46,824 nucleotides of DNA from a virus (IMGVR_UViG_2541047840_000001), one strand, 5' to 3'; positions 1 to 46,824 are shown, numbered from the stretch's first letter. The notes: generated by a model from the sequence alone, not told the origin. Numbers and translations: made by a program.

Positions 1-2037
1 GCATTTGCTGCTGCTAACAATGCAGCAAATTTCAATCGTGAAAACAAAATGATTGGTCTTACGGCAGATATGAAGCCGGAAGAAGTTCAGGCGATGGGGC
101 AGGCGATGCTTGTTACCGGAACGGCCACCAACCAGTTTGCATCTGATATTCAGGCCGCTCAGGGTTTTCTCGTCGCTGCTGGGCAGGATTATAAAGAGGC
201 TCAGGCGAATCTACTAACTATTGGGCGAACAGCTACAGCTACTGGCTCTGATATCCTCGATGTCTCGAAAGCATCATTTACATTAAGTGACTCATTGAAG
301 ATTGATCCATCTCAAATGAAGTCTGCAATGGGGATTCTGGTTCAGGCAGGGAAAGAGGGAAACTTTGAATTTAAAGATATGGCCAAAAATCTTCCTGTGC
401 TTGGTGCTCAGTTCCAGGCATTAAAAATGGGAGGTAAAGAAGCCGCCGCGACGATGGGGGCAGCTTTGCAGATAGCTCGCAAAGGTGCTGCAACTTCGGA
501 TGAGGCTGCTAATAATATGAACAACTTTTTGGCAAAAATACTTTCCCCTGAAACACTAAAAAAAGCAAAGAAAAATTTCGGTGTAGATTTATATAAAATT
601 GTCACAACAGCGCAGAAAAAAGGGAAGAATCCATTCGAAGCTGCAATGCATTCTGTCATGAAAATGACTAAGAACGGAGATCAGAAGTTACTTGGTGAAC
701 TATTTGGCGATATGCAGGTTCAGAACTTTGTTCGTCCGATGATTCAAAACTGGAAGGAATACCAGAGAATCAAAGCAACATCTCTTGGAGCTGGAAGTGC
801 TGTTATTGACCGCGATTTTGCCAACATAACGAAAGATAATGCGGAGCGATTGAAACAATTACGTATTCAGGCTAGCAATGCATCATTAAGTTTTGGTCAG
901 GCCTTGCAACCTGCTTTGAATGCCGCGCTTAGTGTTTTGGTTCCGCTGATTACAAAAATTAGTGAATTTGTAGCTAACAACCCCAATTTTGTGTCTCAGA
1001 TAGTGATGGCGGCAGGTGCGTTTCTAACCATGAAAAGTGTGGTTATAGCGTGTAGGGTAGCTATGCTGGCTTTATCTGTAGCGACAAAGCTAACACCCTT
1101 CGGGTGGATTCAGATGGCTATATCTGCGCTGGTTGCCGCAGGAATATTGCTCTATCAGAACTGGGATAAGATCAGAGATTATGCTGTCAGAGTTTGGCCT
1201 TCTGTTAAGGAATATACAGTTAAATCGTTTGAGACTATAAAAAACTTTATCTTAAACTTTGATCTCAATGGATGGATTATATCTATATTTGGTAAAGCAT
1301 GGGATTATCTTTCCAACATAAACTGGAGTTCGGCAGGAGTAAGAATTTACAGTACATTAATTAGTGCTTTTAAATGGATGTCTCCGCTTCCGTTCTTAAT
1401 TAAAGCATTTAAACTTACAACAAATTACCTTTCTGGCATTAACTGGAGCGAAACAGGAAAGAAAATCATAGATACACTGGTATCTGTTTTTATGCGTTTT
1501 TCGCCAGTTGGACTCTTTATAAGAGCATTCCAATCTGTAACGTCTTATTTATCTGGAATAAACTGGAGTGAGTCAGGTGCAAAAATAATTGAGACGTTAA
1601 TCATTGGGATAAAATCAAAAGCAAATGCTTTAATTAATGAAGTGAAAGGCGTTTTTTCTTCTGTACGTGAGTATTTACCGTTCTCTGACGCGAAAAAAGG
1701 TCCATTCTCACAGCTAACAAAGTCAGGTGGTGCAATAATGACTACTCTGGCATCAGGTGTTAGCAGGAATAACAGCTTACAGAATGCAATAGCAACCAAG
1801 TTCGGGCAATCAAATTTATCACCTCACGGGATATCTGCCGCCGGGACTTCTGGACCTCGCCAGAACGTTAACGCTGTGACTGGTGGAATAACCTATTCAC
1901 CTGTAATCAATCTTCCGGCTGGTTCACCAAAGGAAACTGAGGCGGCAGCTAAAAGAGCATTAGATGCGGGATATTCTGATTTTGAGAAGAAATTGAGTGC
2001 TCATATGTTCCAACAACGGAGATTAAGTTTTGGATGA
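1..2037 (+). CDS. Tail tape measure protein, C-terminal portion (ORF open from window nt 1; track ORF 49..2037)
   Basis: 662-aa ORF with no in-frame stop upstream to nt 1; sits immediately upstream of X/D/V baseplate genes; hydrophobic central segment typical of tape measure proteins. Confidence 0.8.
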   Translation, partial: AFAAANNAANFNRENKMIGLTADMKPEEVQAMGQAMLVTGTATNQFASDIQAAQGFLVAAGQDYKEAQANLLTIGRTATATGSDILDVSKASFTLSDSLKIDPSQMKSAMGILVQAGKEGNFEFKDMAKNLPVLGAQFQALKMGGKEAAATMGAALQIARKGAATSDEAANNMNNFLAKILSPETLKKAKKNFGVDLYKIVTTAQKKGKNPFEAAMHSVMKMTKNGDQKLLGELFGDMQVQNFVRPMIQNWKEYQRIKATSLGAGSAVIDRDFANITKDNAERLKQLRIQASNASLSFGQALQPALNAALSVLVPLITKISEFVANNPNFVSQIVMAAGAFLTMKSVVIACRVAMLALSVATKLTPFGWIQMAISALVAAGILLYQNWDKIRDYAVRVWPSVKEYTVKSFETIKNFILNFDLNGWIISIFGKAWDYLSNINWSSAGVRIYSTLISAFKWMSPLPFLIKAFKLTTNYLSGINWSETGKKIIDTLVSVFMRFSPVGLFIRAFQSVTSYLSGINWSESGAKIIETLIIGIKSKANALINEVKGVFSSVREYLPFSDAKKGPFSQLTKSGGAIMTTLASGVSRNNSLQNAIATKFGQSNLSPHGISAAGTSGPRQNVNAVTGGITYSPVINLPAGSPKETEAAAKRALDAGYSDFEKKLSAHMFQQRRLSFG

Positions 2038-2248
2038 TTATAGAACGGTTCAAGGGGACTCATGGGATAGTATCGCGTTAAAGTTGTATGGTAATGAGTA
2101 CCTGTCTTATCTTCTTATTGATGCTAATACTGAGCACCGCTTTACGGTGCTTTTTTCTGCGGGAATTATTCTTAAAGTTCCTGATGCTCCGGTTATGCCA
2201 ATATCAGTAAACAATTTGCCTCCGTGGAGACGCAATAGTGTTACGTAA
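2030..2248 (+). CDS. Phage tail protein X (LysM-like small tail protein)
   Basis: 72 aa, position between tape measure and gpD-like gene; DSWDSIALKLYGNEY motif resembles the tail protein X family. Confidence 0.6.
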   Translation: MDDYRTVQGDSWDSIALKLYGNEYLSYLLIDANTEHRFTVLFSAGIILKVPDAPVMPISVNNLPPWRRNSVT

Positions 2249-3239
2249 AACGCTTTTTGATGTTATATATCAGAATGTAAATATTACCGCTCATATGTCA
2301 CCTGATGTTTTGTCAATGTCTTATACAGATAATGAAGATGGTCAGGTCGATGATATTTCTATTATATTAAAAAATGATGATGGGAAATGGTCTGGAGACT
2401 GGACACCTAAAAAGGGTGATTTTATTGATTTGAGCTTTAAGCCTATAAATCAAATCGTCCTTGAGTGCGGGAAATTCCAGGTGGATGGCATAACTTGCTC
2501 TGGACCACCTTCTGTTGTTGAGGTGACTGCTGTTTCTGTTCCTGTTTCATCAGGCATTAGACGTGATTTAAAAAGTAATGCATGGGAAAAAACAACTCTT
2601 AAAGATATAGCAACTTCTATAGCTAAATTAGCTAACCTTGAACTGTTGTTTCTTATTGATGGTGATAGTAATCCATATTATGCGCGTGAAGATCAAATGG
2701 AGGAAAGCGATTTAAAATTTCTCCATCGACTTTGCCAGGATGAAGGGTTGTCGTTAAAGGTCACTGATAGCCAATTAATAATATTTGCTCAAGAGATGTT
2801 TGAGCAAAAAGATCCTATCGCTACGCTTACGTTAGGTATTGATGAGATAATCAGATATAGCTTTAGCACACAATCTACAGATTTGTATAAAAGTTGCACG
2901 TGCAAATATCGCGTACCTAAAAAAAGAAAGTCGCTTTCGTATACTTGGGTAGATCCATCCGTAGAAGAAGGGTCGAATCTTAAGATAAGAAAACTGGTAG
3001 CTAATTTAGATGAAGCAAAACGTAAGGCAAAGGCTGCTTTGCGGCTTAAAAATAGATATCAAAATACCGGATCTTTAGTATTGGTTGGAGACACCAGATT
3101 GGTAGCTGGTGTAACTATAAATCTGGACGGATTCGGTTTATTTTCTGGAAAATATCTTATATCGAAAGCTGTGCATTCAATTGGGGCTAGTGGTTATACC
3201 ACCTCGATTGATGTCCGAAGAGTAATTAATGGGTATTAA
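2238..3239 (+). CDS. Late control gene D-like tail/baseplate hub protein
   Basis: 333 aa, GTG start overlapping upstream stop; size and position match P2 gpD / Mu gp44-like proteins. Confidence 0.75.
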   Translation: MLRKTLFDVIYQNVNITAHMSPDVLSMSYTDNEDGQVDDISIILKNDDGKWSGDWTPKKGDFIDLSFKPINQIVLECGKFQVDGITCSGPPSVVEVTAVSVPVSSGIRRDLKSNAWEKTTLKDIATSIAKLANLELLFLIDGDSNPYYAREDQMEESDLKFLHRLCQDEGLSLKVTDSQLIIFAQEMFEQKDPIATLTLGIDEIIRYSFSTQSTDLYKSCTCKYRVPKKRKSLSYTWVDPSVEEGSNLKIRKLVANLDEAKRKAKAALRLKNRYQNTGSLVLVGDTRLVAGVTINLDGFGLFSGKYLISKAVHSIGASGYTTSIDVRRVINGY

Positions 3240-3241
3240 TT

Positions 3242-3862
3242 ATGAATGATTTAGAAACATTATTACGTCAGACTATAAGAGTTGGCGTTGTTTCTGATAT
3301 TGATGATGGTGATGTTACAGCAAGAGTTACTTTCGATGATCAGGATAACGTCACTTCGGCAAAGTTATCAGTTATTGTGAAAAATACAGATAAGAATGCT
3401 GATTACTGGATGCCAGATATTGGTGAGCAAGTTTTGTGTATCTTTCATCCCGCAGGGCCGCAACAAGGTTTTATTCTTGGTAGTTTTTATGATGAAACAC
3501 AGAAGCCGCCATCTAATACTGTTAATAAACGCGTCATTAGATTTAATAACGGAACTCGTATTGAGATAGACAGAGAATCTAATTTACTCCTTGTTGATGC
3601 TGTCGGAGATGTAACCGTTAAGGCTACAGGAACCGTAACTATTGATGCTCCAGAAACCATCATTACCGGAAATGCTACAGTTGAAGGATTACTAACCTTC
3701 AAAGGTGGAATGAAAGGATCTTCTGCTGGAGGTGTTGCAGCTACAATTTCTGGGAATGTTAAGGTTGTTGGTGGTGATATAGATGTTGATGGGATTAAAT
3801 CTAAAGGCCACCATCACACAGCTCAGGGGGAATACGCTTCGACAACGGAGGCTCAGGCATGA
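3242..3862 (+). CDS. Baseplate spike protein (gpV-like)
   Basis: 206 aa, Gly/Val-rich C-terminal repeat region typical of gpV spike; gene order. Confidence 0.75.
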   Translation: MNDLETLLRQTIRVGVVSDIDDGDVTARVTFDDQDNVTSAKLSVIVKNTDKNADYWMPDIGEQVLCIFHPAGPQQGFILGSFYDETQKPPSNTVNKRVIRFNNGTRIEIDRESNLLLVDAVGDVTVKATGTVTIDAPETIITGNATVEGLLTFKGGMKGSSAGGVAATISGNVKVVGGDIDVDGIKSKGHHHTAQGEYASTTEAQA

Positions 3863-4326
3863 TTGTGGGTATGCTTGGTACAATGCCTTTTGTTGCCTCA
3901 TCAATAGTAGTGAATACGTTCAACAATTTTAAAAGGACGTCAAAGCGTCGTGTAGCGCGCCATGATGTTATTGGGCTTAAACCTGTTCTGGAGGATATAG
4001 GTCCAGATCTGGATGAAGTTAGTTTTAATATGCGGTTGGATACAACACTTGGCATTGTTCCATTGGCTGCGCTTTCATTACTTAGGACAATGCAATCAAT
4101 TCAGGAAGTAAATCCTGTTGTAATTGGTATTCAGTATTTTGGTAATTTTATAATTACAGATATAGAGGAATCATGGACTTATTTCGGTCCAACTGGGAAT
4201 CCGCGAGTGATTATCGTCGGCATTAAATTACAGGAAGTCGGACAGACCTCTCTGAAAGAAGCATTAGTTGATATTGCTGGCAATATAGAGTCAAAAACTA
4301 GAAGTGCGTTAGGTAAATTATTATGA
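3859..4326 (+). CDS. Tail/baseplate-associated protein of uncertain function
   Basis: 155 aa ORF translationally coupled between gpV-like and gpW-like genes; no confident family assignment by eye. Confidence 0.5.
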   Translation: MIVGMLGTMPFVASSIVVNTFNNFKRTSKRRVARHDVIGLKPVLEDIGPDLDEVSFNMRLDTTLGIVPLAALSLLRTMQSIQEVNPVVIGIQYFGNFIITDIEESWTYFGPTGNPRVIIVGIKLQEVGQTSLKEALVDIAGNIESKTRSALGKLL

Positions 4327-4643
4327 ATAATACGTTTACCATATCATCACCTTCTTACTCGATTGATTGGTCGCCCAAAACAGTTGTAGAAGAAGTTTTG
4401 CAAAATGTCTCTACTATTATTAATACTCAGATTGGCACTGTACCATATGCCAGAAAATTAGGAGTTAATTCAAGTCTTGTTGATAGCCCCAGTCCAATTT
4501 TTATTGCTACAGCAACACGAGAAATAATTCAAAAAATTAGTGAGTTTGAGCCTAGAGCGATTATCCATTCTGTTACTTTTGAAAGAACGGACGTTTCTGA
4601 TGGTTTTATTAGGCCAAAACTTGTGATAGGAGTTAGAGAATGA
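4323..4643 (+). CDS. Baseplate wedge protein (gpW / gp25-like)
   Basis: 106 aa, size and position preceding gpJ-like gene. Confidence 0.7.
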   Translation: MNNTFTISSPSYSIDWSPKTVVEEVLQNVSTIINTQIGTVPYARKLGVNSSLVDSPSPIFIATATREIIQKISEFEPRAIIHSVTFERTDVSDGFIRPKLVIGVRE

Positions 4644-5764
4644 CGTTGCCGCGTGGTGGTTTGCCAGATATTACTTTCGCAGATTCTAACCCGACTGATA
4701 TAACAACTCGTTCAATCAGGGCTTTTGAGAGTATAACAGGTGAAACATTAGCACCTGCTGATCCACGTAGATTATTCATCTTATCATTGTGTGAGATTAT
4801 TATACAGCAAAGAAAAGCTATCGATTTTTCTGCAAAACAAAACCTTCTTACATATGGTGAAGGTGAATATCTCGACCATATAGGCTATCTGACGGATACG
4901 CCTAGGCTGGAAGCTCAATCTGCCTTGACTACATTTGAGTTTAATCTGTCAACAAAATTATCGGGGATATATACAATACCTTCTGGCACTCAAGTTTCAA
5001 CTGGAAATGGTGTTATTTTCCAAACAGATGTTTTGTTGGAAATACCTGCTGGGAAAACAGTTGGTACAGTCTCAGGATATGCTGTTATACCTGGTTTATC
5101 GGGGAATGGCTTTTTACCAGGGCAAATAAATGAGTTGGTGACTCCGTTGCCGTATGTTTCCAGCGTAAGGAATCTAACAACATCTAATTCTGGTGCTGAT
5201 ACAGAGTCAGATGATAATTATGCTGAAAGAATAAAACTGTCGCCGGAAAAACTGTCTACAGCAGGGCCGGAGGATTCTTATAAATATTGGACAAGAACAG
5301 CCAATCAGAATATAAAAGATGTGAATGTATATACACCATCGCCCGGAACTGTAGAAATCCGTTCTTTGTTAGAGAACGGAGATATACCTTCTGATGAACT
5401 ATTGGAGCAGATAAATAGCGTTCTCTCTGCAACTAATATTCGACCATTCACAGATAAAGTTCTTGTTAAGAAACCAGAGAGCATTGAATACGATATAGTA
5501 ATTAAATACTGGATTAACTCATCGGACAAAAACAGAACAACATTAATTCAAAGTGAGGTTGAGAAAGCTATTGATGAGTATAAACAATGGCAACGTTCGG
5601 TTATGGGAAGAGATATAAATCCAGATGAAATTATTCAACGTTTAAAAAATGCTGGGGCTAAAAGATTAGAAATATCAAGTCCTGTATTTACTGTGGTTGG
5701 AGAGACGCAGGTCGCCAGAGAGAGAAATATAAATTGCCAGTATGCGGGGTTAGAGGATGGCTGA
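4640..5764 (+). CDS. Baseplate protein J-like
   Basis: 374 aa, coupled to W and I genes; typical baseplate J size and order. Confidence 0.8.
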   Translation: MTLPRGGLPDITFADSNPTDITTRSIRAFESITGETLAPADPRRLFILSLCEIIIQQRKAIDFSAKQNLLTYGEGEYLDHIGYLTDTPRLEAQSALTTFEFNLSTKLSGIYTIPSGTQVSTGNGVIFQTDVLLEIPAGKTVGTVSGYAVIPGLSGNGFLPGQINELVTPLPYVSSVRNLTTSNSGADTESDDNYAERIKLSPEKLSTAGPEDSYKYWTRTANQNIKDVNVYTPSPGTVEIRSLLENGDIPSDELLEQINSVLSATNIRPFTDKVLVKKPESIEYDIVIKYWINSSDKNRTTLIQSEVEKAIDEYKQWQRSVMGRDINPDEIIQRLKNAGAKRLEISSPVFTVVGETQVARERNINCQYAGLEDG

Positions 5765-6338
5765 TATCTTTAATGTTAGCTTGTTGGATGTTTTACCTCC
5801 TAACTTAGCTAGAGATCCGAACGTGATAGCTATGTCGAAAGCTATCGATGATGAACTACAAGCAATTAACAATTTAATATATAAGACAGAAATATATAGC
5901 GTTGTTGATAACCTGGACTCAGTTGTTCTCGATCATTTAGCTTGGCAATGGAATGCTGATACATGGAGGGATAGTTGGCCTGTATCGTTAAAGCGTTCTG
6001 TTTTTAAATCAATAATACGAACAAAGCGAATAAAGGGTACAAGGGCAGCGGTTGAAGATGTAGTAAATAGCTTGGGTGGAGAGGTAAACATAACAGAATG
6101 GTTTGAAACATCACCACCTGGCGAGCCATATACAGCCTCAATTGTTGCTTCGATTAACTCTTTTGATGGTGCCGTTCCTTCGAAAGAAATGTTGGAAGAT
6201 ACGTTAAGAAGTATCAAGAGCGCAAAGTCGGCAAGAACATTATTTACATTTTCGCAAGCAGCCAATGTTTCTGGTGGTGTCGGTATTGTTGGTGCTTGTC
6301 AGCCTGTGTCTTATGTACGATTAATTGGCGAGTGCTAA
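5757..6338 (+). CDS. Tail protein I-like (baseplate, fibre attachment)
   Basis: 193 aa, immediately upstream of tail fibre gene. Confidence 0.7.
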   Translation: MADIFNVSLLDVLPPNLARDPNVIAMSKAIDDELQAINNLIYKTEIYSVVDNLDSVVLDHLAWQWNADTWRDSWPVSLKRSVFKSIIRTKRIKGTRAAVEDVVNSLGGEVNITEWFETSPPGEPYTASIVASINSFDGAVPSKEMLEDTLRSIKSAKSARTLFTFSQAANVSGGVGIVGACQPVSYVRLIGEC

Positions 6339-6368: not shown

Positions 6369-8723
6369 GTGAGTAAATTATTATTTACGATGACTGACGC
6401 CGGGCGTCAGGAGCTGGTTAATGCCAACAAAACAGGAACAAATAAAGTTGAGATTGTTTCTGTTGGTTTAGGTAGTAGATATTATGTCACGTCAACCTCA
6501 CAAACAAATATAACAAACGAAATAAAACGACTTACCACAATAGGTGGCAAAGTTGTTTCCCCTGATACAATTCATGTAACAGCGAAGGATGATAGTAAAG
6601 ATGAGTATGTTGTCCATACAATAGGATTGTATACGAATAAGGGGGCGTTGTTTGCTGTATACTCACAAGAACAAGCAATAATAAATAAAGCATCATCTAC
6701 TATCGCTTTAATATCAAGTGATATAGCAATTAAGACTCTTGATACTAAAAATATTACATTTGGTGATATTGAGTTTATTAATCCTCCCGCGACCGAAACT
6801 GTTGTTGGGGTGGCAAGATTTGCTAATGAACAAGAAATTGAGGCAGGTACAGATGATTCCCTTGCTGTTTCAGCAAAGCGGCTTAAGCAAGCCATTGTGA
6901 AACATGAGCAATCACGTAATCATCCTGATGCAACTTTAACCTCAAAAGGCTTTGTTCAACTTAGCAGCGCCACCAATAGCGCGTCTGAAACGCTTGCTGC
7001 GACGCCTAAGGCTGTTAAGGCAGCATATGACCTTGCTAACGCTAAATACACCGCACAGGACGCTACCACAGCGCGAAAAGGGATTGTTCAGCTCAGTAGT
7101 GCCACCAACAGCACGTCTGAAACGCTAGCAGCAACACCAAAGGCTGTTAAGGCAGCGTATGATCTTGCGGCCGGAAAGGCTCCGTCCAATCACACGCATT
7201 CGTGGGAGCAGATAACAAATGTGCCTGTAGCTTCACTGACTGTAAGGGGAATAACTCAGCTCAGTAGTGCCACTAACAGCACGTCTGAAACGCTGGCTGC
7301 GACACCAAAAGCTGTTAAGGCGGTAATGGATAAAACGAACAAGAAAGCGCCCTTAAACAGTCCTGCGCTGACCGGAACACCAACAACACCAACTGCGCCA
7401 AAAGGTACTAACAATACTCAGATCGCAAGCACGGCTTATGTTATGGCTGCGATCGCTGCCCTCGTGGACTCGTCGCCTGACGCACTAAATACGCTGAACG
7501 AGCTGGCTGCGGCGTTGGGCAACGACCCGAATTTTGCGACCACCATGACTAACGCGCTTGCGGGTAAGCAACCGAAAGATGCCACCCTGACGGCGCTGGC
7601 CGGGCTTGCTACTGCGGCAGACAGGTTTCCGTATTTTACGGGGAATGATGTCGCCAGCCTGGCAACTCTGACAAAAGTCGGGCGGGATATTCTTGCGAAA
7701 TCGACCGTTGCCGCCGTTATCGAATACCTCGGTTTACAGGAAACGGTAAATCAGGCTTCTGGCGCATTACAGAAAAACCAGAACGGCGCAGATATTCCTG
7801 ATAAAAGATTATTCCTGCGCAATATTGGAGCAACAAATTCAACAACCATGTCTTTTAATGGTGGTGTAGGATGGTTCAAACTGGCAACTGTAACAATGCC
7901 ACAAGCCAGTTCCGTGGTTTACATAAGCCTGATTGGTGGTGCAGGGTATAACGTTGGCTCCCCGCAGCAAGCAGGCATCTCTGAGCTGGTTCTGCGTGCC
8001 GGAAATGGAAATCCAAAGGGTATTACTGGTGCATTATGGCGACGGACCTCGGTTGGATTTACTAATTTTGCATGGGTGAATACATCCGGTGATACCTATG
8101 ACATTTATGTAGAAATAGGTAATTACGCCACGGGTGTTAATATCCAGTGGGATTATACAAAGGATGCCACTGTACAAATTCATACATCACCAACTTATAC
8201 AGCGAATAAACCGACAGGCCTGACAGATGGGACTGTATATGTAATTTACAGTTCGCACATAAAACCGACTGCTGCTGATGTTGGGGCGTTGTCATTATCT
8301 GGTGGTCAATTGAATGGTGCACTGGGTATCGGAACATCCAGTGCTCTTGGCGGTAACTCGATTGTTTTGGGTGATAATGACACGGGCTTTAAACAAAATG
8401 GCGACGGTAATCTGGACGTTTATGCTAATAACGTCCATGTTATGCGCTTTGTCTCCGGCAGCATTCAAAGTAATAAAACCATAAATATTACAGGGCGTGT
8501 TAACCCCTCGGATTACGGTAACTTTGATTCCCGTTATGTGAAAGATGTTCGCCTGGGTACGCGTGTTGTTCAATTGATGGCGCGTGGTGGTCGTTATGAA
8601 AAAGCCGGACACGCAATTACCGGATTAAGAATCATTGGTGAAGTAGATGGCGATGATGAAGCCATCTTCAGACCAATACAAAAATACATCAATGGCACAT
8701 GGTATAACGTCGCACAGGTGTAA
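6369..8723 (+). CDS. Tail fibre protein (constant N-terminal part plus invertible variable C-terminal part)
   Basis: 784 aa, GTG start; three tandem SSATNS-SETLAATPKAVKA fibre repeats; C-terminus ends PIQKYINGTWYN like the alternative fibre end on the minus strand; gix-like site inside the gene. Confidence 0.85.
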   Translation: MSKLLFTMTDAGRQELVNANKTGTNKVEIVSVGLGSRYYVTSTSQTNITNEIKRLTTIGGKVVSPDTIHVTAKDDSKDEYVVHTIGLYTNKGALFAVYSQEQAIINKASSTIALISSDIAIKTLDTKNITFGDIEFINPPATETVVGVARFANEQEIEAGTDDSLAVSAKRLKQAIVKHEQSRNHPDATLTSKGFVQLSSATNSASETLAATPKAVKAAYDLANAKYTAQDATTARKGIVQLSSATNSTSETLAATPKAVKAAYDLAAGKAPSNHTHSWEQITNVPVASLTVRGITQLSSATNSTSETLAATPKAVKAVMDKTNKKAPLNSPALTGTPTTPTAPKGTNNTQIASTAYVMAAIAALVDSSPDALNTLNELAAALGNDPNFATTMTNALAGKQPKDATLTALAGLATAADRFPYFTGNDVASLATLTKVGRDILAKSTVAAVIEYLGLQETVNQASGALQKNQNGADIPDKRLFLRNIGATNSTTMSFNGGVGWFKLATVTMPQASSVVYISLIGGAGYNVGSPQQAGISELVLRAGNGNPKGITGALWRRTSVGFTNFAWVNTSGDTYDIYVEIGNYATGVNIQWDYTKDATVQIHTSPTYTANKPTGLTDGTVYVIYSSHIKPTAADVGALSLSGGQLNGALGIGTSSALGGNSIVLGDNDTGFKQNGDGNLDVYANNVHVMRFVSGSIQSNKTINITGRVNPSDYGNFDSRYVKDVRLGTRVVQLMARGGRYEKAGHAITGLRIIGEVDGDDEAIFRPIQKYINGTWYNVAQV
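6948..7330 (+). repeat. Three in-frame tandem coding repeats (about 40 aa each) inside tail fibre gene
   Basis: Near-identical blocks GxxQLSSATNSxSETLAATPKAVKA repeated three times in the translation. Confidence 0.7.
7717..7742. other. gix/hix-like recombination site (left crossover site of invertible segment)
   Basis: TTATCGAATACC-TC-GGTTTACAGGAA; inner half-site is a perfect match to the Gin/Hin-type half-site TTCCTGTAAACC as recalled. Confidence 0.65.
7726..7798. repeat. 73-bp perfect inverted repeat, left copy (IRL) of invertible fibre segment
   Basis: 7726-7798 is the exact reverse complement of 10708-10780 (checked base by base). Confidence 0.85.
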
Positions 8724-8726
8724 ATT

Positions 8727-9254: not shown

Positions 9255-9259
9255 AAATT

Positions 9260-9279
9260 AAGGCCCGATAGCGGGCCTT
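9260..9279. terminator. Hairpin between convergent fibre-assembly genes (bidirectional terminator-like)
   Basis: AAGGCCCG-ATA-GCGGGCCTT stem-loop followed by T-rich tract. Confidence 0.55.
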
Positions 9280-9282
9280 GTT

Positions 9283-37777: not shown

Positions 37778-37788
37778 AGGAAATATAA

Positions 37789-38028: not shown

Positions 38029-39599
38029 ATATTCTTGATCGAGTTATTGCGCCGTTTTCACCTCAGAGGGCATTAAATCGAGCTTTGGCAAGAAAACGGT
38101 TAGAAGCACTTGAAGGTATTAATAACCTTGGATATTCACGTCATGGTGCAAGCACTCATAAAAAATCATTAAGGGGTTGGTTTAGTAAAGCTGGTTCTCC
38201 TGATGATGATATTGTTAAAAATATAGATAAATTGCGTGAGCGTTCTCGTGATCTCTTCATGGGAAACCCGCTATCGGTTGGCGCAATAAAAACTATCAGG
38301 ACAAACGTTGTTGGTTCCGGTTTAAAACTAAATGCGAACATTGATGCCGATTTTTTGGGGATGACGCAGGAAGAAGCGCGAGCATGGGAAAAGCATGTTG
38401 AGCGTGAGTTTAGATTATGGGCTGATTCTCCAAATTGTGATGCATCAAGAATGTGTACTTTTGGACAATTGCAATCATTGGTCCAAATATCTGCGTTAAC
38501 ATCTGGCGATATATTTGCTGCGCTACCAGTTATTAAGCGTAAGGGTGTTATATATGATTTGTGCGTCTATTTAATTGAAGGTGATCGTGTTTGCAATCCA
38601 GAGGATCGTTTTATACCAAATCTTTACGGTGGCGTAGAGGTTGGTGAATTTAGCGAGCCTGTGGCGTACTGGGTTGCAAAACATCACCCAGCCGGGACTT
38701 CTGGTTTTGTAACCCGCAAGTGGGAACGTATTCCCGCATATGGGAGTAAAACAGGAAGAAGAAATATTCTGCATGTCATGCAGGATTTTGAAAGGCCTGG
38801 GCAACGTCGTGGCGTTCCTGTCCTTGCTCCTGTAATTGAAGCATTGAAGCAGTTAGGACGATACACCGATGCTGAATTGGTTGCTGCGGTTGTGTCAGGG
38901 ATGTTTACAGTCTTTATTAAAACAGACGCTCCTGATGGACCAGTAGGTGAATCAGGTATCCCTCAGTACGAGCAGATCGATAACCATGATGATAACACCC
39001 AAGAAATGGGGAATGGCTCCATAGTAAGTTTGGGTGAAGGTGAGTCGATAGATACAGCAAATCCCGGGCGACCAAATACGGCATTTGATGGTTTTGTTGT
39101 CGCCATATGCCGTCAAATTGGGGCTGCTTTAGAACTCCCTTACGAACTCTTGGTAAAGCATTTTACAGCAAGTTATAGCGCTAGCAGGGCCGCATTACTT
39201 GAAGCCTGGAAAATGTTCCGTATGCGACGTGACTGGATGGTTCAGTCATTTTGCCAACCGATCTATGAGGAATGGTTGGCCGAAGCCGTTGCAAAAGGCC
39301 GTGTTATTGCCCCTGGTTTTTTTTATGGTCCTGAATATCGCGCTGCATGGAGCGGTGCCCAATGGTATGGCCCATCACAAGGCCAATTAGATCCCCTTAA
39401 AGAAGTTAAAGCTGCAAAACTGCGTGTTGAGGAAACATTCTCTACCCGTGAAAAGGAAGCGGCTGAAATGTCAGGTCTTAACTGGGAAGAAACCGCACAA
39501 ATCTGTGGCAGAGAAGAGAATGCTCGCCGTGAGTTGGGGCTTATTACACCTCCTGTTTCTGAGGTAAATGAACAAAATATGGAGACTGATGATGCCTAA
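38025..39599 (+). CDS. Portal protein (lambda gpB-like)
   Basis: 524 aa, position after W-like gene. Confidence 0.85.
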   Translation: MNILDRVIAPFSPQRALNRALARKRLEALEGINNLGYSRHGASTHKKSLRGWFSKAGSPDDDIVKNIDKLRERSRDLFMGNPLSVGAIKTIRTNVVGSGLKLNANIDADFLGMTQEEARAWEKHVEREFRLWADSPNCDASRMCTFGQLQSLVQISALTSGDIFAALPVIKRKGVIYDLCVYLIEGDRVCNPEDRFIPNLYGGVEVGEFSEPVAYWVAKHHPAGTSGFVTRKWERIPAYGSKTGRRNILHVMQDFERPGQRRGVPVLAPVIEALKQLGRYTDAELVAAVVSGMFTVFIKTDAPDGPVGESGIPQYEQIDNHDDNTQEMGNGSIVSLGEGESIDTANPGRPNTAFDGFVVAICRQIGAALELPYELLVKHFTASYSASRAALLEAWKMFRMRRDWMVQSFCQPIYEEWLAEAVAKGRVIAPGFFYGPEYRAAWSGAQWYGPSQGQLDPLKEVKAAKLRVEETFSTREKEAAEMSGLNWEETAQICGREENARRELGLITPPVSEVNEQNMETDDA

Positions 39600-40656
39600 T
39601 TGGTGGGAAATAAAAAATAGCACGGGTGAAGATGACTCTCCGGCTGAACTTTTAATTTACGGGTATATTGGTGAATTTGATGAGGTTTCTTCTTCTGACA
39701 TAGTTAATAAATTAAAGGATATTTCATCAAATACTATCAACGTAAAAATTAATAGTTATGGTGGTTCTGTTTTTACTGCTCAAGCTATTCTTTCATCATT
39801 AAAGCGTCATAAGGCGAATATTACGGTTTATATCGACGGGATTGCTGCATCGGCTGCAACTATTATTGCAATGGCGGGTGATAAAATTATTATCCCATCT
39901 AATGCTATGATGATGATCCATAATCCGTGGACATTTGCTGCTGGCGATGCGGATGAATTGCGTGATATTGCTGAGATGATGGATAAGATACGCAATAGTA
40001 TTTTATCTGCATATAAGGAGAAAACAGGGCTTTCTGAGGATAAATTAATTGAACTAATGGATCAGGAAACATGGCTAAATGCAGAAGAGGCTGTAGAGCT
40101 TGGATTTGCTGACGAAGTTGAAAAACCAATACGCTTATCCGCTTCTATAAAAGAAGGGATGCTTTCTCTTAATGGAATAACTTTTGAAGCATCAAGGTTT
40201 TCAAAATTACCTGATTCACTCGCAAAGTTGCCGCAAAATAAAAATGAGTTATCTACTGAATCAAATGAACAAAATGAGGACGATATTGTGACTCTTGATG
40301 AATTAAAAAATAAATATCCAGAATTATACAATCAGGTTTTTAATGCTGGTAAAGACGAGGGCGTTAAATCAGAACGCGAGCGCATTGAAACAATCGAGAA
40401 TAGCGTGATTCCTGGTCATGACGACCTGGTTAAGAATGCAAAATTCAAAACAGGAGTTTCTGCGGCTGAACTTGCTTTGGAAATTATGAATGCAGAGCGA
40501 GCGCGTAACAAAAACTTTCTTAATCAACGGCAAGAAGACGCAAGTGAGGTGAATGATTCAGTTGATGTTAATCAACCAGAAAACAACGGTAACAAACAGG
40601 CTGAAGCAGTAAAAAATGTTATTGGGTCAGTATTTAAAAAACGCGATAAAAATTAA
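39568..40656 (+). CDS. Head maturation protease (ClpP/S49-like) with C-terminal scaffold-like region
   Basis: ClpP-like core with GIAASAATIIAMAGD and MMMIHNP segments; true start probably ATG 39589/39592. Confidence 0.8.
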   Translation: MNKIWRLMMPNWWEIKNSTGEDDSPAELLIYGYIGEFDEVSSSDIVNKLKDISSNTINVKINSYGGSVFTAQAILSSLKRHKANITVYIDGIAASAATIIAMAGDKIIIPSNAMMMIHNPWTFAAGDADELRDIAEMMDKIRNSILSAYKEKTGLSEDKLIELMDQETWLNAEEAVELGFADEVEKPIRLSASIKEGMLSLNGITFEASRFSKLPDSLAKLPQNKNELSTESNEQNEDDIVTLDELKNKYPELYNQVFNAGKDEGVKSERERIETIENSVIPGHDDLVKNAKFKTGVSAAELALEIMNAERARNKNFLNQRQEDASEVNDSVDVNQPENNGNKQAEAVKNVIGSVFKKRDKN

Positions 40657-40665
40657 GGTGAGTTT

Positions 40666-41049
40666 ATGCGAGAGTCTTTTTCATTTGAACCAGATAATCT
40701 GATTATTTCTGGTGGTATGCCAGCAATTCCAACAAGTATTAAACTTGCCAGCGGTAAAGTAAAACGGGGTGAGTTACTTGCTTTTGTCAGTATTGATCAG
40801 ACAACAAATGTTGTCACTGTGGCGCCAATAAATCTCTCTGGTGAAGGGGAGGCAAAAGAACCGTATTGTATCGCTCAACACAATATTGATGCGACTGATT
40901 CAGCGCAAGTCGGAACAGCATGGCTGACCGGAATGTTCAATGCACATGCGGTTATACTTCCTGAATCAGCAAAAGTTGCCGATGTATATCTGGCTTGCCG
41001 GAAGGTTGGAATATTCCTTAATACCGCACAACAAAATCCATCTGCATAA
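40666..41049 (+). CDS. Head decoration protein (lambda gpD-like, tentative)
   Basis: 127 aa directly upstream of major capsid gene. Confidence 0.55.
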   Translation: MRESFSFEPDNLIISGGMPAIPTSIKLASGKVKRGELLAFVSIDQTTNVVTVAPINLSGEGEAKEPYCIAQHNIDATDSAQVGTAWLTGMFNAHAVILPESAKVADVYLACRKVGIFLNTAQQNPSA

Positions 41050-41069
41050 TATAAAGAGGTCGTATTTTT

Positions 41070-42113
41070 ATGCCGAATATTGATATTTTTGAACGACGTA
41101 CGATGCTTGAGCCTGTTATTCAGAATTTCAAGGCTCGTCGTTTTCTTCTTCGTACCTTTTTTCCTGGTGTTCAGACCTTTAATACAAAGAAAGTTGATCT
41201 GGATTTTGTTCGCGGTGGCCGTACTATGGCTCCGTTTGTTGGTAAAGGTTTTGGTTCAAAAACCGTTGAGCGACGCGGCTTTGTAACGAGAACTCTGGAG
41301 CCGCCGCTTGTTGCACCTGATTTGGTAACAACAGCAGAGCTGCTTTTAAACAGGCTTCCGGGTGAGAATATTTACAACGCAAAATCGCCAGAAGAACGAG
41401 CCGCCGAGCAATTAGGTAAAGATTTGCTTGAGCTTGATGAAATGGTTAACCGCCGTGAAGAATGGATGTGTGCACAAGTCTTGTTTACGGGGCAGGTTGA
41501 TATTGTTGGTGAAGGAGTGGATGACACAGTTTATTTTTGGCCTGAAGAGGAAGGAGATAAACCATATCTTGAGCTGACAGGTGATGATTTATGGAGTGCA
41601 GCAAAATCAGATCCGTTGGTCAATGTTCGCAACTGGAAACGTCGGGTATCACTAACTTCAGGTTTTACACCTCGTGTTGCCGTAATGGGCGCAAAAGTTG
41701 TTGATGCCTTCGTTAAAAATGAAGCAGTAACTAAATATCTTGATAATCGCCGAAAAGAGCTTGGGTATATTGAGCCTAAAGAGTTAGAAGAAGGCGTAAC
41801 TCATTATGGCAATCTTGAAGGTGTCGATTTTTATGGTTACGACGAACTTATTCGCAATGATAAAACAGGAAAACCTGAACCATTAGTACCGGAAGATAAG
41901 ATCCTCTTTGGCTCTCCTGGTCGAGGAACGATGCTGTATGGTGCTGTAGAGCTTGTAGATGACGCCGAAAAGACTCTAACGATTGTTGAGTCACCACGAG
42001 TTCCAGACACTTGGGTAACTCGTAAGCCGGCTGGCCGTTATGTTGCCATGAAGTCATCTCCACTGCCTAATCCTGGTGTGGCTGATGCCTATCTGGTGGC
42101 TAAGGTGGTTTAA
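41070..42113 (+). CDS. Major capsid protein (lambda gpE-like)
   Basis: 347 aa, position and size. Confidence 0.8.
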   Translation: MPNIDIFERRTMLEPVIQNFKARRFLLRTFFPGVQTFNTKKVDLDFVRGGRTMAPFVGKGFGSKTVERRGFVTRTLEPPLVAPDLVTTAELLLNRLPGENIYNAKSPEERAAEQLGKDLLELDEMVNRREEWMCAQVLFTGQVDIVGEGVDDTVYFWPEEEGDKPYLELTGDDLWSAAKSDPLVNVRNWKRRVSLTSGFTPRVAVMGAKVVDAFVKNEAVTKYLDNRRKELGYIEPKELEEGVTHYGNLEGVDFYGYDELIRNDKTGKPEPLVPEDKILFGSPGRGTMLYGAVELVDDAEKTLTIVESPRVPDTWVTRKPAGRYVAMKSSPLPNPGVADAYLVAKVV

Positions 42114-42506
42114 ATGGCCAGACTGATTAAAAACATTGATACGATAAGCCACGGCTCGCTAAAAGCGGGCCGTTTGCTTAATGGGCTAATGGATAACTCC
42201 AGAATTGCCGAACTGATTGCGTCAGGACATGCTATTGCCACCAAAGAGGATGGTGATTTGGCATCGGCTGGGGGCTATGATGCTGCTAAGTTAGCTTTTG
42301 AGCATGGATACGCATCTGCTGTTAATGATGCTGTGGACGCGGGGTTGATTACGCGAACGGAGGCGGGTAGCTGTGTATTCGAGGTTGAGTTTGAGGATGA
42401 TGGCGGCAATGAGGAAATGGTTGCTGATGATTCATCTGAATCTGTAGCTACTTCTGATACCAGTAATGCGAAAAAATCAACGCAAAAAAAAGGTAATAAG
42501 AAGTAA
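42114..42506 (+). CDS. Hypothetical head-module protein with acidic C-terminus
   Basis: 130 aa, coupled to capsid gene. Confidence 0.45.
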   Translation: MARLIKNIDTISHGSLKAGRLLNGLMDNSRIAELIASGHAIATKEDGDLASAGGYDAAKLAFEHGYASAVNDAVDAGLITRTEAGSCVFEVEFEDDGGNEEMVADDSSESVATSDTSNAKKSTQKKGNKK

Positions 42507-42850
42507 TGAACTCCTTCAAAGAGGTTATAGCGCAAGACATTTCTGCAATATTCCTCAATGAAAAAGAGTTTGCCGATACATATAACATAGACGGCAAGGA
42601 TATCCTTGCCGTTATTGATACAGACCTTATTCATGAGCGGAATAAACGCTCATATGCTGAGTTTGCAGAGGGAATAAATCAGGGGCAAATAATATTATTT
42701 GTTTCAAGAAAAGATTTTCCTGTTCTCCCTGTCAAAGACCAGTCAATGAAAATCAACGGTAAAAATTATATTGTTGATGAAGTATCAGATAATGTTGGTG
42801 TATTGGAAATAACTCTCACTGTTAATACTAACAGAGGAATGCCGATTTGA
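42506..42850 (+). CDS. Putative head-tail connector / head completion protein
   Basis: 114 aa, gene order between capsid and tail sheath. Confidence 0.45.
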   Translation: MNSFKEVIAQDISAIFLNEKEFADTYNIDGKDILAVIDTDLIHERNKRSYAEFAEGINQGQIILFVSRKDFPVLPVKDQSMKINGKNYIVDEVSDNVGVLEITLTVNTNRGMPI

Positions 42851-43332
42851 TTAATCTTTTGATAGATGCAATAAAAAATCGGTTGGAACATGAGGTTTTC
42901 CATGATTTATTAGTGCAGGGGCCTCCTTATGATGAAACAGACAGCGATATTAAATTGTTTGTTCCAACAATATTTAAAGGGTACTTGCCTCCTAAATCAC
43001 AACCATCTCCAGATAAACCGCCAGAATTTCCTCATGTGATTATCAGGCCCACGGAAGGAGGAATGCAGCCTGAAACGGATGAAGTTAAGGTTAAGTTTCT
43101 TCTAGGTGGTTTTTGTGAGGACCATACTGGATATGAATGGGTAATGGCTCTTCTTGAAAGGATGATGTTTCATTTTCAGGAGAAGCCTTTACTTGAAGAG
43201 AAATTTCTCTTTCAGGGTGATATCAGATGGCGAATGTTTGATGATCAACCATATCCATATTGGATAACGGAAGCAACTGGAACGTGGCTAGTATTAAAGC
43301 CTCAGAATATTCAGTCTCAGGAGTTTATCTAA
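42847..43332 (+). CDS. Putative neck / tail completion protein
   Basis: 161 aa, gene order. Confidence 0.45.
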   Translation: MINLLIDAIKNRLEHEVFHDLLVQGPPYDETDSDIKLFVPTIFKGYLPPKSQPSPDKPPEFPHVIIRPTEGGMQPETDEVKVKFLLGGFCEDHTGYEWVMALLERMMFHFQEKPLLEEKFLFQGDIRWRMFDDQPYPYWITEATGTWLVLKPQNIQSQEFI

Positions 43333-43623
43333 ATGGCTAATAAGAAAAGTAGTAAAGAAGATATAGAAAAGAAGGAAGATGTTGCTCAAACATTTGTATA
43401 TATAGGACCAACAATCCCTCAACTCTCAATTTTGAAGCATAAACTATTTAAGAATGGCTTATCTCCAGAGTGTAAAAAATTAATATCACATATTCCTGGT
43501 GCAAAGTGTTTGTTTGTGGCAACCAGTGATTTTGCAGATGCAGAAAAAAGACTTTCTGATAAAACCAGTGTCGAGTATGTAATGTACTCTAGAGTTTCTT
43601 CTTCTATCATGGAGATTAAATAA
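43333..43623 (+). CDS. Hypothetical structural-module protein
   Basis: 96 aa, stop overlaps sheath start. Confidence 0.4.
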   Translation: MANKKSSKEDIEKKEDVAQTFVYIGPTIPQLSILKHKLFKNGLSPECKKLISHIPGAKCLFVATSDFADAEKRLSDKTSVEYVMYSRVSSSIMEIK

Positions 43624-45086
43624 TGGGATATCGCCACGGTATTTATATATCTGAGCTGGCTACATCTATAACTCCTCCAGTACAAGTTAGTGCTGGGTTG
43701 ATTGTCGCATTTGGTACAGCTCCTGTTAATCAGTTAGAAGATCCAGCCTCAGCGGTAAATAAACCTATCATTGCTTATACATACGCAGAGGCCGTATCTA
43801 AAATAGGATATAGCACAAACTTCGAGAAATATACTTTAAGCGAAGTAATTAAAGTCGCATTTGGAATATATGGTATTGCGCCAGTTGTATTTATCAATGT
43901 GCTTGATCCAGCAAAGCATAAGAAAGACGTAACTGATGAGGTAGTAAAACTTTCTGGCGGGAAAGGTACGCTCTCTAACGATGGTGTCTTATATAAATCT
44001 GTTGTTGTGAAAAAAGCAGATGGTGATTCTCCAGGGTTAACGGTTGATACAGATTATGTACTGGCGCTGGATGATAATGGCTATACGGTCATTACCGCTA
44101 TTAGCGGAGGAAAAATTACTGAAAAAGACGCCACTCTTAAGGTTAGTTATACGCATCTTGATCCCGGGGCTGTAACTAAAAACGATATTATTGGTGGTGT
44201 GGATTCCAACACTAAAGCGAATACGGGGCTTGAGTTACTGTCGGATGTTTATCCCCGCTTCAAACTAGTTCCAGGACAAGTGATTGCGCCTGGATTTAGT
44301 TCTGATAGTGAAGTTGGCCAGCTAATGGCGGCTAAAGCTGCGCTGATTAGTGAATTGTTCAAAGCAGAAGCTATCACCGATGCGCCGACTGATAAATCTA
44401 CTATCAGTGATTATTCTGCTGTTCCTGAATGGAAGCAGAACAATAATCATATGGCAGCTAACCAGACAGTGTGCTGGCCGATGGTGAAACTTGGTGACAA
44501 TATTTACCATCACTCAACCCATTTAGCGGCCGCAACATGCTTGCTGGATAGTCAGTATGGTGATATTCCATCACGTTCTCCGTCAAATATAAAACTACAG
44601 ATGGACGGTGCTGTACGTAAAGATGGCAGTGAGGTATGGCTTAACATTAGCCAGGCAAACTACTTAAATGGACAGGGGATTGTAACAAGCCTTAATTTTG
44701 ATGGTTGGAAATCATGGGGAAACCGTAATGCTATTTATCCAACATCTACAGACCCCAAAGACGCATTTCGTGTTTGCCGACGTATGTTTAACTGGGTGGG
44801 TAATACGTTAATTCTTTCGCATTGGTCAAAAATAGACAATCCTGCAAACCGTCGATTAATTGAATCGATTGTTACTAGTGCGAATATTTGGCTTAACGGC
44901 CTCACAGGTAATCAGGATATTGCAGGTGGTGTTGTTACCTTTGATCAGTCTGAAAACACGATTACGTCATTGATGGACGGGATTGTTAAATTCCATGTGA
45001 AAATGACACCATTCTCACCTGCCAGAGATATAGAGTTCGTCATGGAATATAATCCTGATTATCTGCTGAACTTGTTTTCTGAATAA
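43623..45086 (+). CDS. Tail sheath protein
   Basis: 487 aa directly preceding tube gene; contractile-tail order. Confidence 0.85.
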   Translation: MGYRHGIYISELATSITPPVQVSAGLIVAFGTAPVNQLEDPASAVNKPIIAYTYAEAVSKIGYSTNFEKYTLSEVIKVAFGIYGIAPVVFINVLDPAKHKKDVTDEVVKLSGGKGTLSNDGVLYKSVVVKKADGDSPGLTVDTDYVLALDDNGYTVITAISGGKITEKDATLKVSYTHLDPGAVTKNDIIGGVDSNTKANTGLELLSDVYPRFKLVPGQVIAPGFSSDSEVGQLMAAKAALISELFKAEAITDAPTDKSTISDYSAVPEWKQNNNHMAANQTVCWPMVKLGDNIYHHSTHLAAATCLLDSQYGDIPSRSPSNIKLQMDGAVRKDGSEVWLNISQANYLNGQGIVTSLNFDGWKSWGNRNAIYPTSTDPKDAFRVCRRMFNWVGNTLILSHWSKIDNPANRRLIESIVTSANIWLNGLTGNQDIAGGVVTFDQSENTITSLMDGIVKFHVKMTPFSPARDIEFVMEYNPDYLLNLFSE

Positions 45087-45102
45087 ATAATAGGAGGTTG
45101 CT

Positions 45103-45624
45103 TTGAGCAATCAAATTCCTGAGAGACTTATTAACTTTACAGTATACGGTGAAGGAAACCGTATTATCGGTGTTGCTGACGCAAAGCTGCCATCAATTGA
45201 GATGATGACAGAGACAGTTAGTGGTGCAGGTATCGCTGGAGAGCTTGAGAGCGGAACGCTGGGGCATTTCAAACCAATGACCGTCTCTCTTAAATGGCGA
45301 ACTCTGACCTCTGCTGGTACAAAATTATTTCTATCCTCATCTCATCAGGTAGATTTTCGCGGTAGCCAGCAGGTTTATGATGCAGGAACAGGAAAATATA
45401 AAACGGTTCCTATTCGGGCTTCAATGAAGCTAAACCCTAAAAAACTGGATTTAGGTTCGCTACAGGTGGCAAAGGCTACTGATTCAGAGAATGAATTTGA
45501 AGTTCTCTATATCAAATTATTTATTGATGGAAAAGAAGTCTTGGAAATTGATAAGTTGAACTTTATTTGTATCTTTGATGGTGAAGATATATTAAAAAGC
45601 GTTCGTGATGATTTAGGTTTATAA
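45103..45624 (+). CDS. Tail tube protein
   Basis: 173 aa after sheath. Confidence 0.8.
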   Translation: MSNQIPERLINFTVYGEGNRIIGVADAKLPSIEMMTETVSGAGIAGELESGTLGHFKPMTVSLKWRTLTSAGTKLFLSSSHQVDFRGSQQVYDAGTGKYKTVPIRASMKLNPKKLDLGSLQVAKATDSENEFEVLYIKLFIDGKEVLEIDKLNFICIFDGEDILKSVRDDLGL

Positions 45625-45633
45625 GGTGACAAA

Positions 45634-45915
45634 ATGGAAACCGTTAAATTAAGTAAAGAATATCGTTTTGAAGACTTTGAGCCGGTGACTGAACTCAACC
45701 TTGATTTAGACAACCTAAAAGGCAGTGATATTTTAGAGGTATCGGACTTACTGCAATCTCAAGGGCATGTTTCAGTTCAAACATCACTTGATAATAAAGT
45801 CCATGCAGCCTTGGCTGCTCGCTGTATTGGCCGTCCAATAGAGTATCTGAATGGATTGCCAGCGAAAGACTTTGTTAAAGTTTGTCAAAAGGTACAGAAT
45901 TTTTTGCTCTCGTAG
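45634..45915 (+). CDS. Tail assembly chaperone (short form)
   Basis: 93 aa immediately upstream of tape measure gene. Confidence 0.65.
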   Translation: METVKLSKEYRFEDFEPVTELNLDLDNLKGSDILEVSDLLQSQGHVSVQTSLDNKVHAALAARCIGRPIEYLNGLPAKDFVKVCQKVQNFLLS

Positions 45916-46064
45916 GTTTTGATGAGCAAAAACCTATTGATAAGCAAATAATGAGGGCCGCGAGTTCTCTATCTCAATCATCTCAATCAACACCTATATC
46001 CTACTGGCTTTCGCTTCGGTTGAGGCGAATCGTCGCATGGATTGATGTGTTTAATGAGGATTAA
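45634..46064 (+). CDS. Tail assembly chaperone, predicted -1 frameshift fusion product
   Basis: Slippery heptamer T_TTT_TTG at 45900-45906; the -1 frame is open from there to 46064 just before the tape measure start. Confidence 0.5.
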
Positions 46065-46087
46065 TACTAATGGCCAGCAATAAGAAC

Positions 46088-46824
46088 TTTAAGCTGGCTT
46101 TTGAAATTGGCGGCAAAGTTGCCGCCTCTCTCCCCAAAAGTTTTACTACAGCTAATCAGGCTGTTGCTAAATTAAATGCCGAGCTTGCTGGATTAACGAA
46201 AGAACATGGGGAAATTCAAAAGCTACAATCTGTAAAAGTAAAGGTTGGACAGACTGCCCTCGAATATCATAAAGCTGCCGCTCGCGTTGAAGAGTTACAG
46301 AAGCAAATAAAAAACACGGCCAATCCAACCAGAGCGATGCTTCGTGACTTTGAGAAGGCAAAAACACATTCATCAAATTTACGAGCATCACTACGTTCTC
46401 AGCGTGAAGAACTGGCCGCTTTAAAGTCTGCGTATCAGGGAGCTGATACATCTGCCAGAGCTTTGGCCTCAAGAGAGAAAGAGCTTAAAGCAAGCATTGA
46501 TCGTAATCGTGAGGCTCAGGCCCGTAGCGTTGAGCAGGTTAACCGCTACAGAACGGCTTTGGCTTTAGCCAGAGCAAATGTTCAGCAAGTGAAAAAACAG
46601 CAGGAGGAACTTAACCGGGCATTAGAAAAACAACGTATTGATAAAATTAACAGTTATAAAAATGCGTTGGCTGAAGCACGGAAAAATGTTCTTGCAGTAA
46701 AACGTGCTCAGGAGGAGTTAAACCGCGCGTTGGAAAGGCAGCGTGAATTGAAGCGAGAGCATCTTGGTGAGGCAAAGAGTCAACTTGTAAGGTCAGGATT
46801 ACAAACTGGTGCTGTAGCGGCTGG
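46088..46824 (+). CDS. Tail tape measure protein, N-terminal portion (runs off window end)
   Basis: ATG 46088; Ala/Glu/Lys/Arg-rich coiled-coil-like sequence with repeated EELNRALE blocks; no stop before window end. Confidence 0.8.

Follow-up and report, generated by a model that had tools for sequence, protein, structure and literature searches.

P1 and P7 (Punavirus) are the model circular phage-plasmids, and P1 combines PacAB headful packaging, Cre-lox, the P1 RepA initiator, its own partition proteins and the C1 repressor. The 46,824-nucleotide (nt) viral DNA stretch analyzed here over its full length (IMGVR_UViG_2541047840_000001, hereafter the window) follows the same lifestyle logic. 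We consider it highly likely that the window represents, but for a single base, the entire circular genome of a temperate myovirus kept in Escherichia coli as a low-copy plasmid rather than integrated. Its ends join in one gene and its phage and plasmid modules are intact, in line with an original prediction, made from the bare sequence, of a near-complete, circularly permuted phage-plasmid-like genome (Table 1).

The window is half the P1 genome size and differs from it in most core functions, with a lambda gpA-type terminase and a lambda E-like capsid protein where P1 relies on PacAB, a small ParA with an 82-residue partner instead of the P1 partition proteins, an IncFII/LM-type RepA instead of P1 RepA, and a CI-like helix-turn-helix (HTH) repressor instead of C1; neither Cre nor another tyrosine recombinase was found. 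Common to P1/P7 and the window are a Cin-type invertase, an immI-like C4/antirepressor module and a Ref-like nuclease. Nucleotide matches to P1/P7 are limited to the fibre segment, where the P7 C segment is 95% identical to window 8514-10742, and one short accessory stretch. Membership of Punavirus was rejected on the gpA-type TerL, the IncFII/LM RepA, the missing tyrosine recombinase and the limited P1/P7 match. An N15-like linear phage-plasmid was likewise rejected, the large open reading frames (ORFs) giving no protelomerase-like match and the relatives being deposited as circular.

Table 1. Features of the window, in order of position (a dot marks features without strand)
Feature	Position	Strand	Basis or comment
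Tape-measure gene, 3' part	1..2037	+	PHROG 28; continues from 46824 across one absent base (join test)
Baseplate and tail genes: hub, gpD/VgrG-like, gpV-like, gpW-like, gpJ-like, gpI-like	2030..6338	+	PHROGs 46, 52, 9992, 76, 43, 6, 48; PGAP names in ATCC 25922 plasmid
Tail fibre gene	6369..8723	+	Constant part to ~7723, variable part in invertible segment; PHROG 454/381
Invertible segment, Mu G / P1-P7 C type	7723..10783	.	Bounded by 83-nt inverted repeats
Inverted repeats, 83 nt	7723-7805 and 10701-10783	.	95% complementary
Fibre-assembly gene	8727-9254	+	Inside invertible segment
Second, inverted fibre-assembly gene	9283-9816	-	Inside invertible segment
Alternative fibre C-terminus	9819 to ~10700	-	Inside invertible segment
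Small serine DNA invertase, Gin/Cin/Hin type	10854..11408	+	Pfam Resolvase 2.6e-44 and HTH_7
Replication initiator RepA	11590..12570	+	PF02387 1e-43; NF040977 RepA_IncFII_LM
Candidate repA countertranscript RNA	11597..11710	-	20-bp stem-loop, then GC hairpin and U-run; putative
Candidate oriR	12700..12840	+	DnaA box and AT-rich stretch; putative, from position
HigB-like toxin	14028-14381	+	Pfam Gp49 5.7e-23; PGAP name RelE/ParE family
HTH antitoxin (HigA)	14381-14680	+	Pfam HTH_3 4e-10
P1 immI-like module	16792..18400 (18413 with isrK)	-	Rfam RNAs and Pfam ORF6N/Phage_pRha
ORF6N/Rha antirepressor	16792-17973	-	Pfam ORF6N and Phage_pRha
63-residue ORF	17970-18161	-	Overlaps antirepressor start codon
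C4 antisense RNA	18215-18302	-	RF01695, 84 bits vs gathering 45
isrK RNA with C4 target sites	18327-18413	-	RF01394, 65 bits, above gathering
ryfA-family RNA	18772..19068	+	Rfam RF00126, 143 bits vs gathering 80, full length
Partition locus	19291..20364	-	Repeat array, ParA and 82-residue partner
ParA partner, 82 residues, basic	19291-19539	-	Follows ParA
ParA, 222 residues	19583-20251	-	Pfam CbiA/ParA/MipZ; PF01656 and related
AT-rich repeat array, candidate centromere/operator	20252-20364	-	Upstream of parA
CI-like repressor	20854-21510	-	Pfam HTH_3 4.5e-11 (Xre/CI HTH)
Operator-like repeats TACCACATNTNGTGGTTTT	21547-21671	-	Divergent control region
Early operon	21685..28007	+	Ref-like RecA-dependent nuclease, DUF1064, DUF3560, MarR-like protein, DUF7446; most genes are unknown-function PHROG matches
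Lysis cassette: two holins, GH108 endolysin, small downstream ORF	28395..29877	+	Pfam Phage_holin_8, Phage_holin_3_7, Glyco_hydro_108 and PG_binding_3
tRNA-Met (CAT)	30171..30246	+	ARAGORN; Rfam
Orphan methyltransferases: MT-A70; ParB_N-domain proteins, one fused to methyltransferase	30555..33480	+	Domain matches, PADLOC
Non-coding stretch upstream of packaging genes, candidate cos region	34216..34774	+	Putative
Packaging, head and proximal tail genes	34774..46064	+	ParB-like protein, TerS, TerL, adaptor, portal, protease, decoration, major capsid, connectors, sheath, tube, chaperone
Tape-measure gene, 5' part	46070..46824	+	Counterpart of vB_YpM_39 coding sequence 11711-14503

Closure of the window into a circle

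The window begins in the 3' part of a tape-measure gene and finishes in the 5' part of the same gene. Its first 2,037 nt, open in frame 1, encode the tape-measure C-terminal part (PHROG 28, E 1e-93). The start of the 5' part had been placed at 46088, which is a TTT codon; the actual ATG lies in the same frame 18 nt upstream, at 46070, and is preceded by a GAGG ribosome-binding site. From this corrected start, 755 nt run to position 46824, leaving the same remainder of 2 nt that had been counted from the earlier one.

Positions 46824 and 1 of the window correspond to 12465 and 12467 in Yersinia phage vB_YpM_39 (OR545053.1) and to 10641 and 10643 in ON470591.1 (both by megablast), and to 1369 and 1371 in the Escherichia coli ATCC 25922 plasmid NZ_CP009073.1 (local blastn). 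Because three independent relatives each show a single-base gap, exactly one nucleotide is absent between the two ends, which had been thought to be separated by "a few bases or more". Inserting any base at the join yields a GGN (Gly) codon and a tape-measure ORF of 2,793 nt and 930 residues, which agrees with the vB_YpM_39 protein at 929 of 931 aligned positions; if no base is added, the reading frame stops after 268 codons. The 60 bases on either side of the join are identical to vB_YpM_39, in which the base at the gap is T. Rejoining of this gene was one of the tests that the original prediction had itself named, and the restored ORF answers it. This single-base loss, coinciding with the window boundary, is most plausibly a linearization or extraction artefact rather than a true frameshift.

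Since the ends abut within one tape-measure gene, the window is a closed circle, and a closed circle has no flanks that could hide an integrase, att sites or chromosomal genes. But for the one base absent between its ends, the window is therefore a complete circular genome: a whole replicon rather than a fragment, with no hidden integration module. All ORFs of at least 200 residues were scanned with Pfam or PHROGs, and no integrase, large serine recombinase, transposase or protelomerase was found among them. In the near-identical ATCC 25922 plasmid, the invertase is the sole recombinase annotated by PGAP, so that both sources agree with the expectation of a small invertase and no integrase.

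Relatives and competing explanations

The window is collinear with the 49,027-bp vB_YpM_39 genome over 45,862 of 46,824 nt (98%), at 98-99% identity, and largely collinear with the 48,488-bp ATCC 25922 plasmid unnamed_1 (NZ_CP009073.1). Three Yersinia phages, vB_YpM_39, vB_YpM_41 and vB_YpM_44 (OR545053-55), are 97.5-99% identical to it and carry Yersinia pestis EV76-CN as GenBank host. These vB_YpM phages and a set of ~47-52 kb E. coli plasmids represent the same element as the window, sharing its RepA, ParA, HigBA, CI-like repressor, C4/antirepressor module, lysis, head and tail genes. The window is ~2.2 kb shorter than vB_YpM_39, lacking a 1.7-kb block at 31071 and the one join base; stretches 14671-15155, 17698-17878 and 18478-18773 are replaced, and uncovered stretches are each shorter than 500 bp.

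The distribution of the element was surveyed in 5,426 complete E. coli genomes, using the repA region and a 9.2-kb TerL-to-sheath region as probes. Matches to the repA region were found in 71 genomes; their 82 places are all on plasmid records, none on a chromosome. For the structural region the count is 72 genomes, with 82 places on plasmids and one on a chromosome. Among the best 60 of the 83 structural-region places, records are mostly 46-57 kb, the exceptions being two truncated ones (32-39 kb) and one of 94 kb. The ATCC 25922 record NZ_CP032086.1 (94,204 bp) carries the element twice, probably as a dimer or through duplication in the assembly; other assemblies of this strain give 48,488 bp. 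PLSDB holds 61 matching records, all typed as non-mobilizable, from Escherichia (58), Klebsiella (1), Salmonella (1) and Clostridium (1), the last a spurious 76-nt match. The relatives are deposited as circular records.

The element family is already known, with deposited members, one of which has been labelled a phage-plasmid, and is not a new kind of system. Plasmid pDETEC34 (CP116126, 47,568 bp), 99.4% identical across the 9.2-kb structural region, is classed as a "phage-plasmid" in Table S10 of PMC10100714. For another family member, JE86-ST05 p3, no Inc type and one prophage-like element were detected (PMC7366661). A 47.2-kb "previously unknown extrachromosomal prophage" has been reported from an E. 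coli plasmid preparation (PMC3681856) and may belong to the same family. Literature searches returned neither a dedicated description of the family nor a publication on vB_YpM_39, vB_YpM_41 or vB_YpM_44. Two candidate isolates, vB_EcoM-613R2 and vB_EcoM-473R2, were rejected as isolated phages, being PHASTER-predicted regions from a preprint that did not identify them as plasmid prophages. The "p0111" phage-like plasmid type, considered first, was dropped, its replicon being described in the literature as a marker of P1-like elements.

The features that characterize phage-plasmids are divided between the window, with its phage gene set, its RepA and ParA and its lack of integration genes, and the relatives, which occur as separate circular replicons. 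Closure of the circle is the direct observation for the window; plasmid carriage and virion formation by this copy we infer from the relatives. Several points weigh against carriage as a plasmid-borne temperate phage. The window sequence does not itself display the physical state of the DNA, and the sole evidence of plaque formation by relatives is the GenBank host line of the three Yersinia phage records. Phage replication genes, Cro and a late activator were not recognized with Pfam, PHROGs or NCBIfam, so the lytic circuit is incompletely explained. One of the 83 structural-region places, outside the best 60 records, lies on a chromosome record, and this lone match could be an integration, a cointegrate or a mis-assembly. 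The DnaA box downstream of repA is a single exact 9-mer, for which an estimated ~0.36 chance matches are expected in the whole window, and an Rfam search of the window matched no CopA or Inc RNA family.

The better-surviving competitor, to which we give little credence, is a cryptic, defective phage-like plasmid that replicates and partitions but yields no infectious particles, or just tailocin-like ones. Such replicons are mostly treated in the literature as cryptic plasmids without an Inc type (PMC7366661), truncated 32-39 kb relatives occur, and the unrecognized late activator and lytic replication genes would suit a defective element; yet all structural, packaging and lysis ORFs are intact, in DNA 98-99% identical to that of phages deposited with a named propagation host, and the sole apparent frameshift coincides precisely with the window boundary. 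More improbable still is an integrative prophage of the ordinary kind, or a circular assembly of a virion genome, with the plasmid genes as mosaic cargo rather than the means of maintenance: a cos or terminally redundant virion genome can assemble as a circle and one chromosomal structural-module match exists among E. coli genomes, but integrase, transposase and att-like repeats were not found, and RepA and the structural module co-occur on 47-52 kb plasmid records, with no chromosomal repA among 82 places.

The element belongs to a common family: about 1.3% of the complete E. coli genomes carry it, among them ATCC 25922, the quality-control strain used worldwide for susceptibility testing. 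Reports usually describe a cryptic, untypable plasmid, yet phages naming a Y. pestis host have been deposited with near-identical genomes. The same element is filed both as plasmid and as phage, and plasmid typing and phage surveillance therefore count it twice. The value of the present analysis lies in the annotation and in testable details: a candidate countertranscript, an immI-like switch and an apparent lack of lytic replication genes.

Replication, maintenance and immunity modules

The RepA protein scores 231.5 bits against the NCBIfam equivalog NF040977 RepA_IncFII_LM (cut-off 70) and fails the classical IncFII equivalog TIGR03474, with 78.1 bits against a cut-off of 446.9. As this cut-off is not reached, the predicted "IncFII-type" label holds at the level of the Pfam superfamily, with an IncL/M-like subfamily, and not for classical IncFII. 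The accompanying DnaA box was recovered: an exact TTATCCACA at 12712-12720, 142 nt past the repA stop and followed by an AT-rich stretch, is the sole exact box in the window. A lone 9-mer is not significant by itself, so the support for this box comes from its position. The R1 origin (oriR) is laid out in the same way, with a DnaA box and an AT-rich region downstream of repA, and the window shares with IncFII and IncL/M replicons both the PF02387/NF040977 RepA and this downstream arrangement. RepA would initiate replication at the candidate origin just past its gene.

Over the 5' end of repA, the minus strand (region 11560-11720) folds at a minimum free energy of -70.5 kcal/mol (z = -7.2), and the RNA found no Rfam family match. 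A structured antisense-strand RNA with a terminator over the repA 5' region would be an IncFII-like trait, and the minus-strand RNA is, from its predicted fold, a candidate copy-control countertranscript that would probably set copy number. Unlike classical IncFII, the window fails TIGR03474, leaves Rfam CopA unmatched, and has no identified copB or leader-peptide gene. The roles assigned here to the candidate origin, countertranscript, centromere and immunity switch are those suggested by anatomy and gene family.

The partition locus combines ParA, which had been correctly predicted, with an 82-residue partner for which no family or PDB sequence match was found in Pfam, NCBIfam or PDB. In a single-sequence AlphaFold2 model, the partner is disordered at its N-terminus and forms two confidently modelled helices in its C-terminal part, and fold searches with this model returned nothing. 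The model is compatible with a ParG-like ribbon-helix-helix protein; the ParG-like part of the prediction is unproven, given the empty fold searches. ParA, its partner and the upstream AT-rich repeats would partition copies of the plasmid. Downstream of the candidate origin, a Gp49-family toxin precedes an HTH antitoxin, in agreement with the expected HigBA-like toxin-antitoxin pair in toxin-first order.

The ryfA-like RNA has the immI-like module on one side and the partition genes on the other, and vB_YpM_39 and the ATCC 25922 plasmid both conserve the sequence next to it. ryfA is usually a chromosomal enterobacterial locus, and a Salmonella homologue codes for a small toxin. The ryfA-like locus could be an additional addiction module. 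HigBA, possibly together with the ryfA-like locus, would penalize plasmid loss.

Immunity is represented by a CI-like protein and by a module resembling P1 immI. Of the predicted CI/Cro/Q-like regulation, the CI-like HTH protein was confirmed, and Cro-like and Q-like proteins found no match in Pfam, PHROGs or NCBIfam; neither the first rightward gene (164 residues) nor either of the two ORFs that precede the lysis genes matched a Cro or Q family. The S24 peptidase match of the CI-like protein is under the Pfam cut-off (20.0 versus 23.3 bits), and a PDB sequence search matched the N-terminal HTH alone. The LexA-type Ser/Lys positions look substituted by eye, and induction may depend on the antirepressor instead of repressor self-cleavage. 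The repressor would act on the repeated operators of the divergent control region.

As in P1 immI, a C4 antisense RNA precedes a small ORF and the gene for an antirepressor, although the antirepressor has no Pfam match to a P1 Ant family and the a1/b1 C4 target sites (RF03163) are sub-threshold in Rfam. The C4 RNA, small ORF and antirepressor would offer a route to derepression. This arrangement is found here in a genome otherwise not related to P1.

The early operon, in which no helicase, primase, O/P-like or other recognizable phage replication gene was found, would be expressed in the lytic state as the first part of a rightward program, with holin-endolysin, methyltransferases, terminase, head and contractile tail. 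The plasmid RepA, or else uncharacterized proteins, may carry out replication in the lytic state.

Fibre switch, virion genes and accessory genes

The invertible segment is a real fibre switch of the Gin/Cin/Hin kind, combining a serine invertase, inverted crossover sites and alternative in-frame fibre ends. Both 83-nt repeats hold a Gin/Cin-type core, AAACCGAGGTTT, exact in one and with one mismatch in the other, and the invertase gene sits just outside the segment. Simulated inversion joins the constant fibre part to the alternative C-terminus with the ORF remaining open, changing its length from 784 to 772 residues. The ATCC 25922 plasmid NZ_CP009073.1 carries the segment flipped relative to the window, so that both orientations are seen among relatives. 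The Mu G segment with Gin offers the same design, a ~3-kb segment with alternative sets of fibre C-terminus and chaperone and an invertase just outside; unlike Mu, the window has no transposase, and its remaining genome is unrelated to Mu. The invertase would flip the 3.06-kb segment, exchanging the fibre C-terminus together with its assembly chaperone, and we propose that host range would therefore be exchanged as well.

A fuller composite can be drawn from these modules, although it is tentative and, taken whole, rather unlikely to hold. It describes an uncharacterized phage-plasmid lineage, with capsid identity of at most 45% to other deposited phages, in which one IncFII/LM RepA and its countertranscript would serve both maintenance and lytic replication, a CI-like repressor lacking any obvious cleavage site of LexA type would be countered by a C4-RNA-gated antirepressor, and fibre flipping would allow movement between E. 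coli (including ATCC 25922) and Y. pestis.

Gene content was assigned with Pfam, PHROGs and NCBIfam, and every component of the predicted phage set (packaging, head, contractile tail, invertible fibre and lysis) was found; by PHROGs and Pfam, the virion, packaging and lysis gene set is complete in the window. TerL carries lambda gpA-type ATPase and nuclease domains, the protease is ClpP-like, the major capsid protein is lambda E-like, the tube is of P2 FII type and the contractile sheath of P2 type. The baseplate is P2/Mu-like, with fibre and fibre-assembly genes present.

Five deposited records match the major capsid protein (41070-42113, +) at 99% identity or more. Its next-best match, at 45%, is to Vibrio phage vB_VpaM_R19R, with no phage relative between these values; this gap indicates that the head lineage is isolated among deposited phages. 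The taxonomy of the deposited phage records of this lineage is given merely as "Viruses".

A gpA-type terminase would probably cut at cos. The vB_YpM_39 and vB_YpM_41 records both start at the base equivalent to window 34360, within the ~560-bp non-coding stretch upstream of the packaging genes. Given the terminase type, the region around 34360 may mark cos.

Three ParB_N-domain proteins are spread across 30555-33480 and 34774-35364 (+). PADLOC returned no defence systems for the window other than the orphan type II methyltransferases. The ParB_N and MT-A70 proteins probably serve self-methylation or anti-restriction, not partition.

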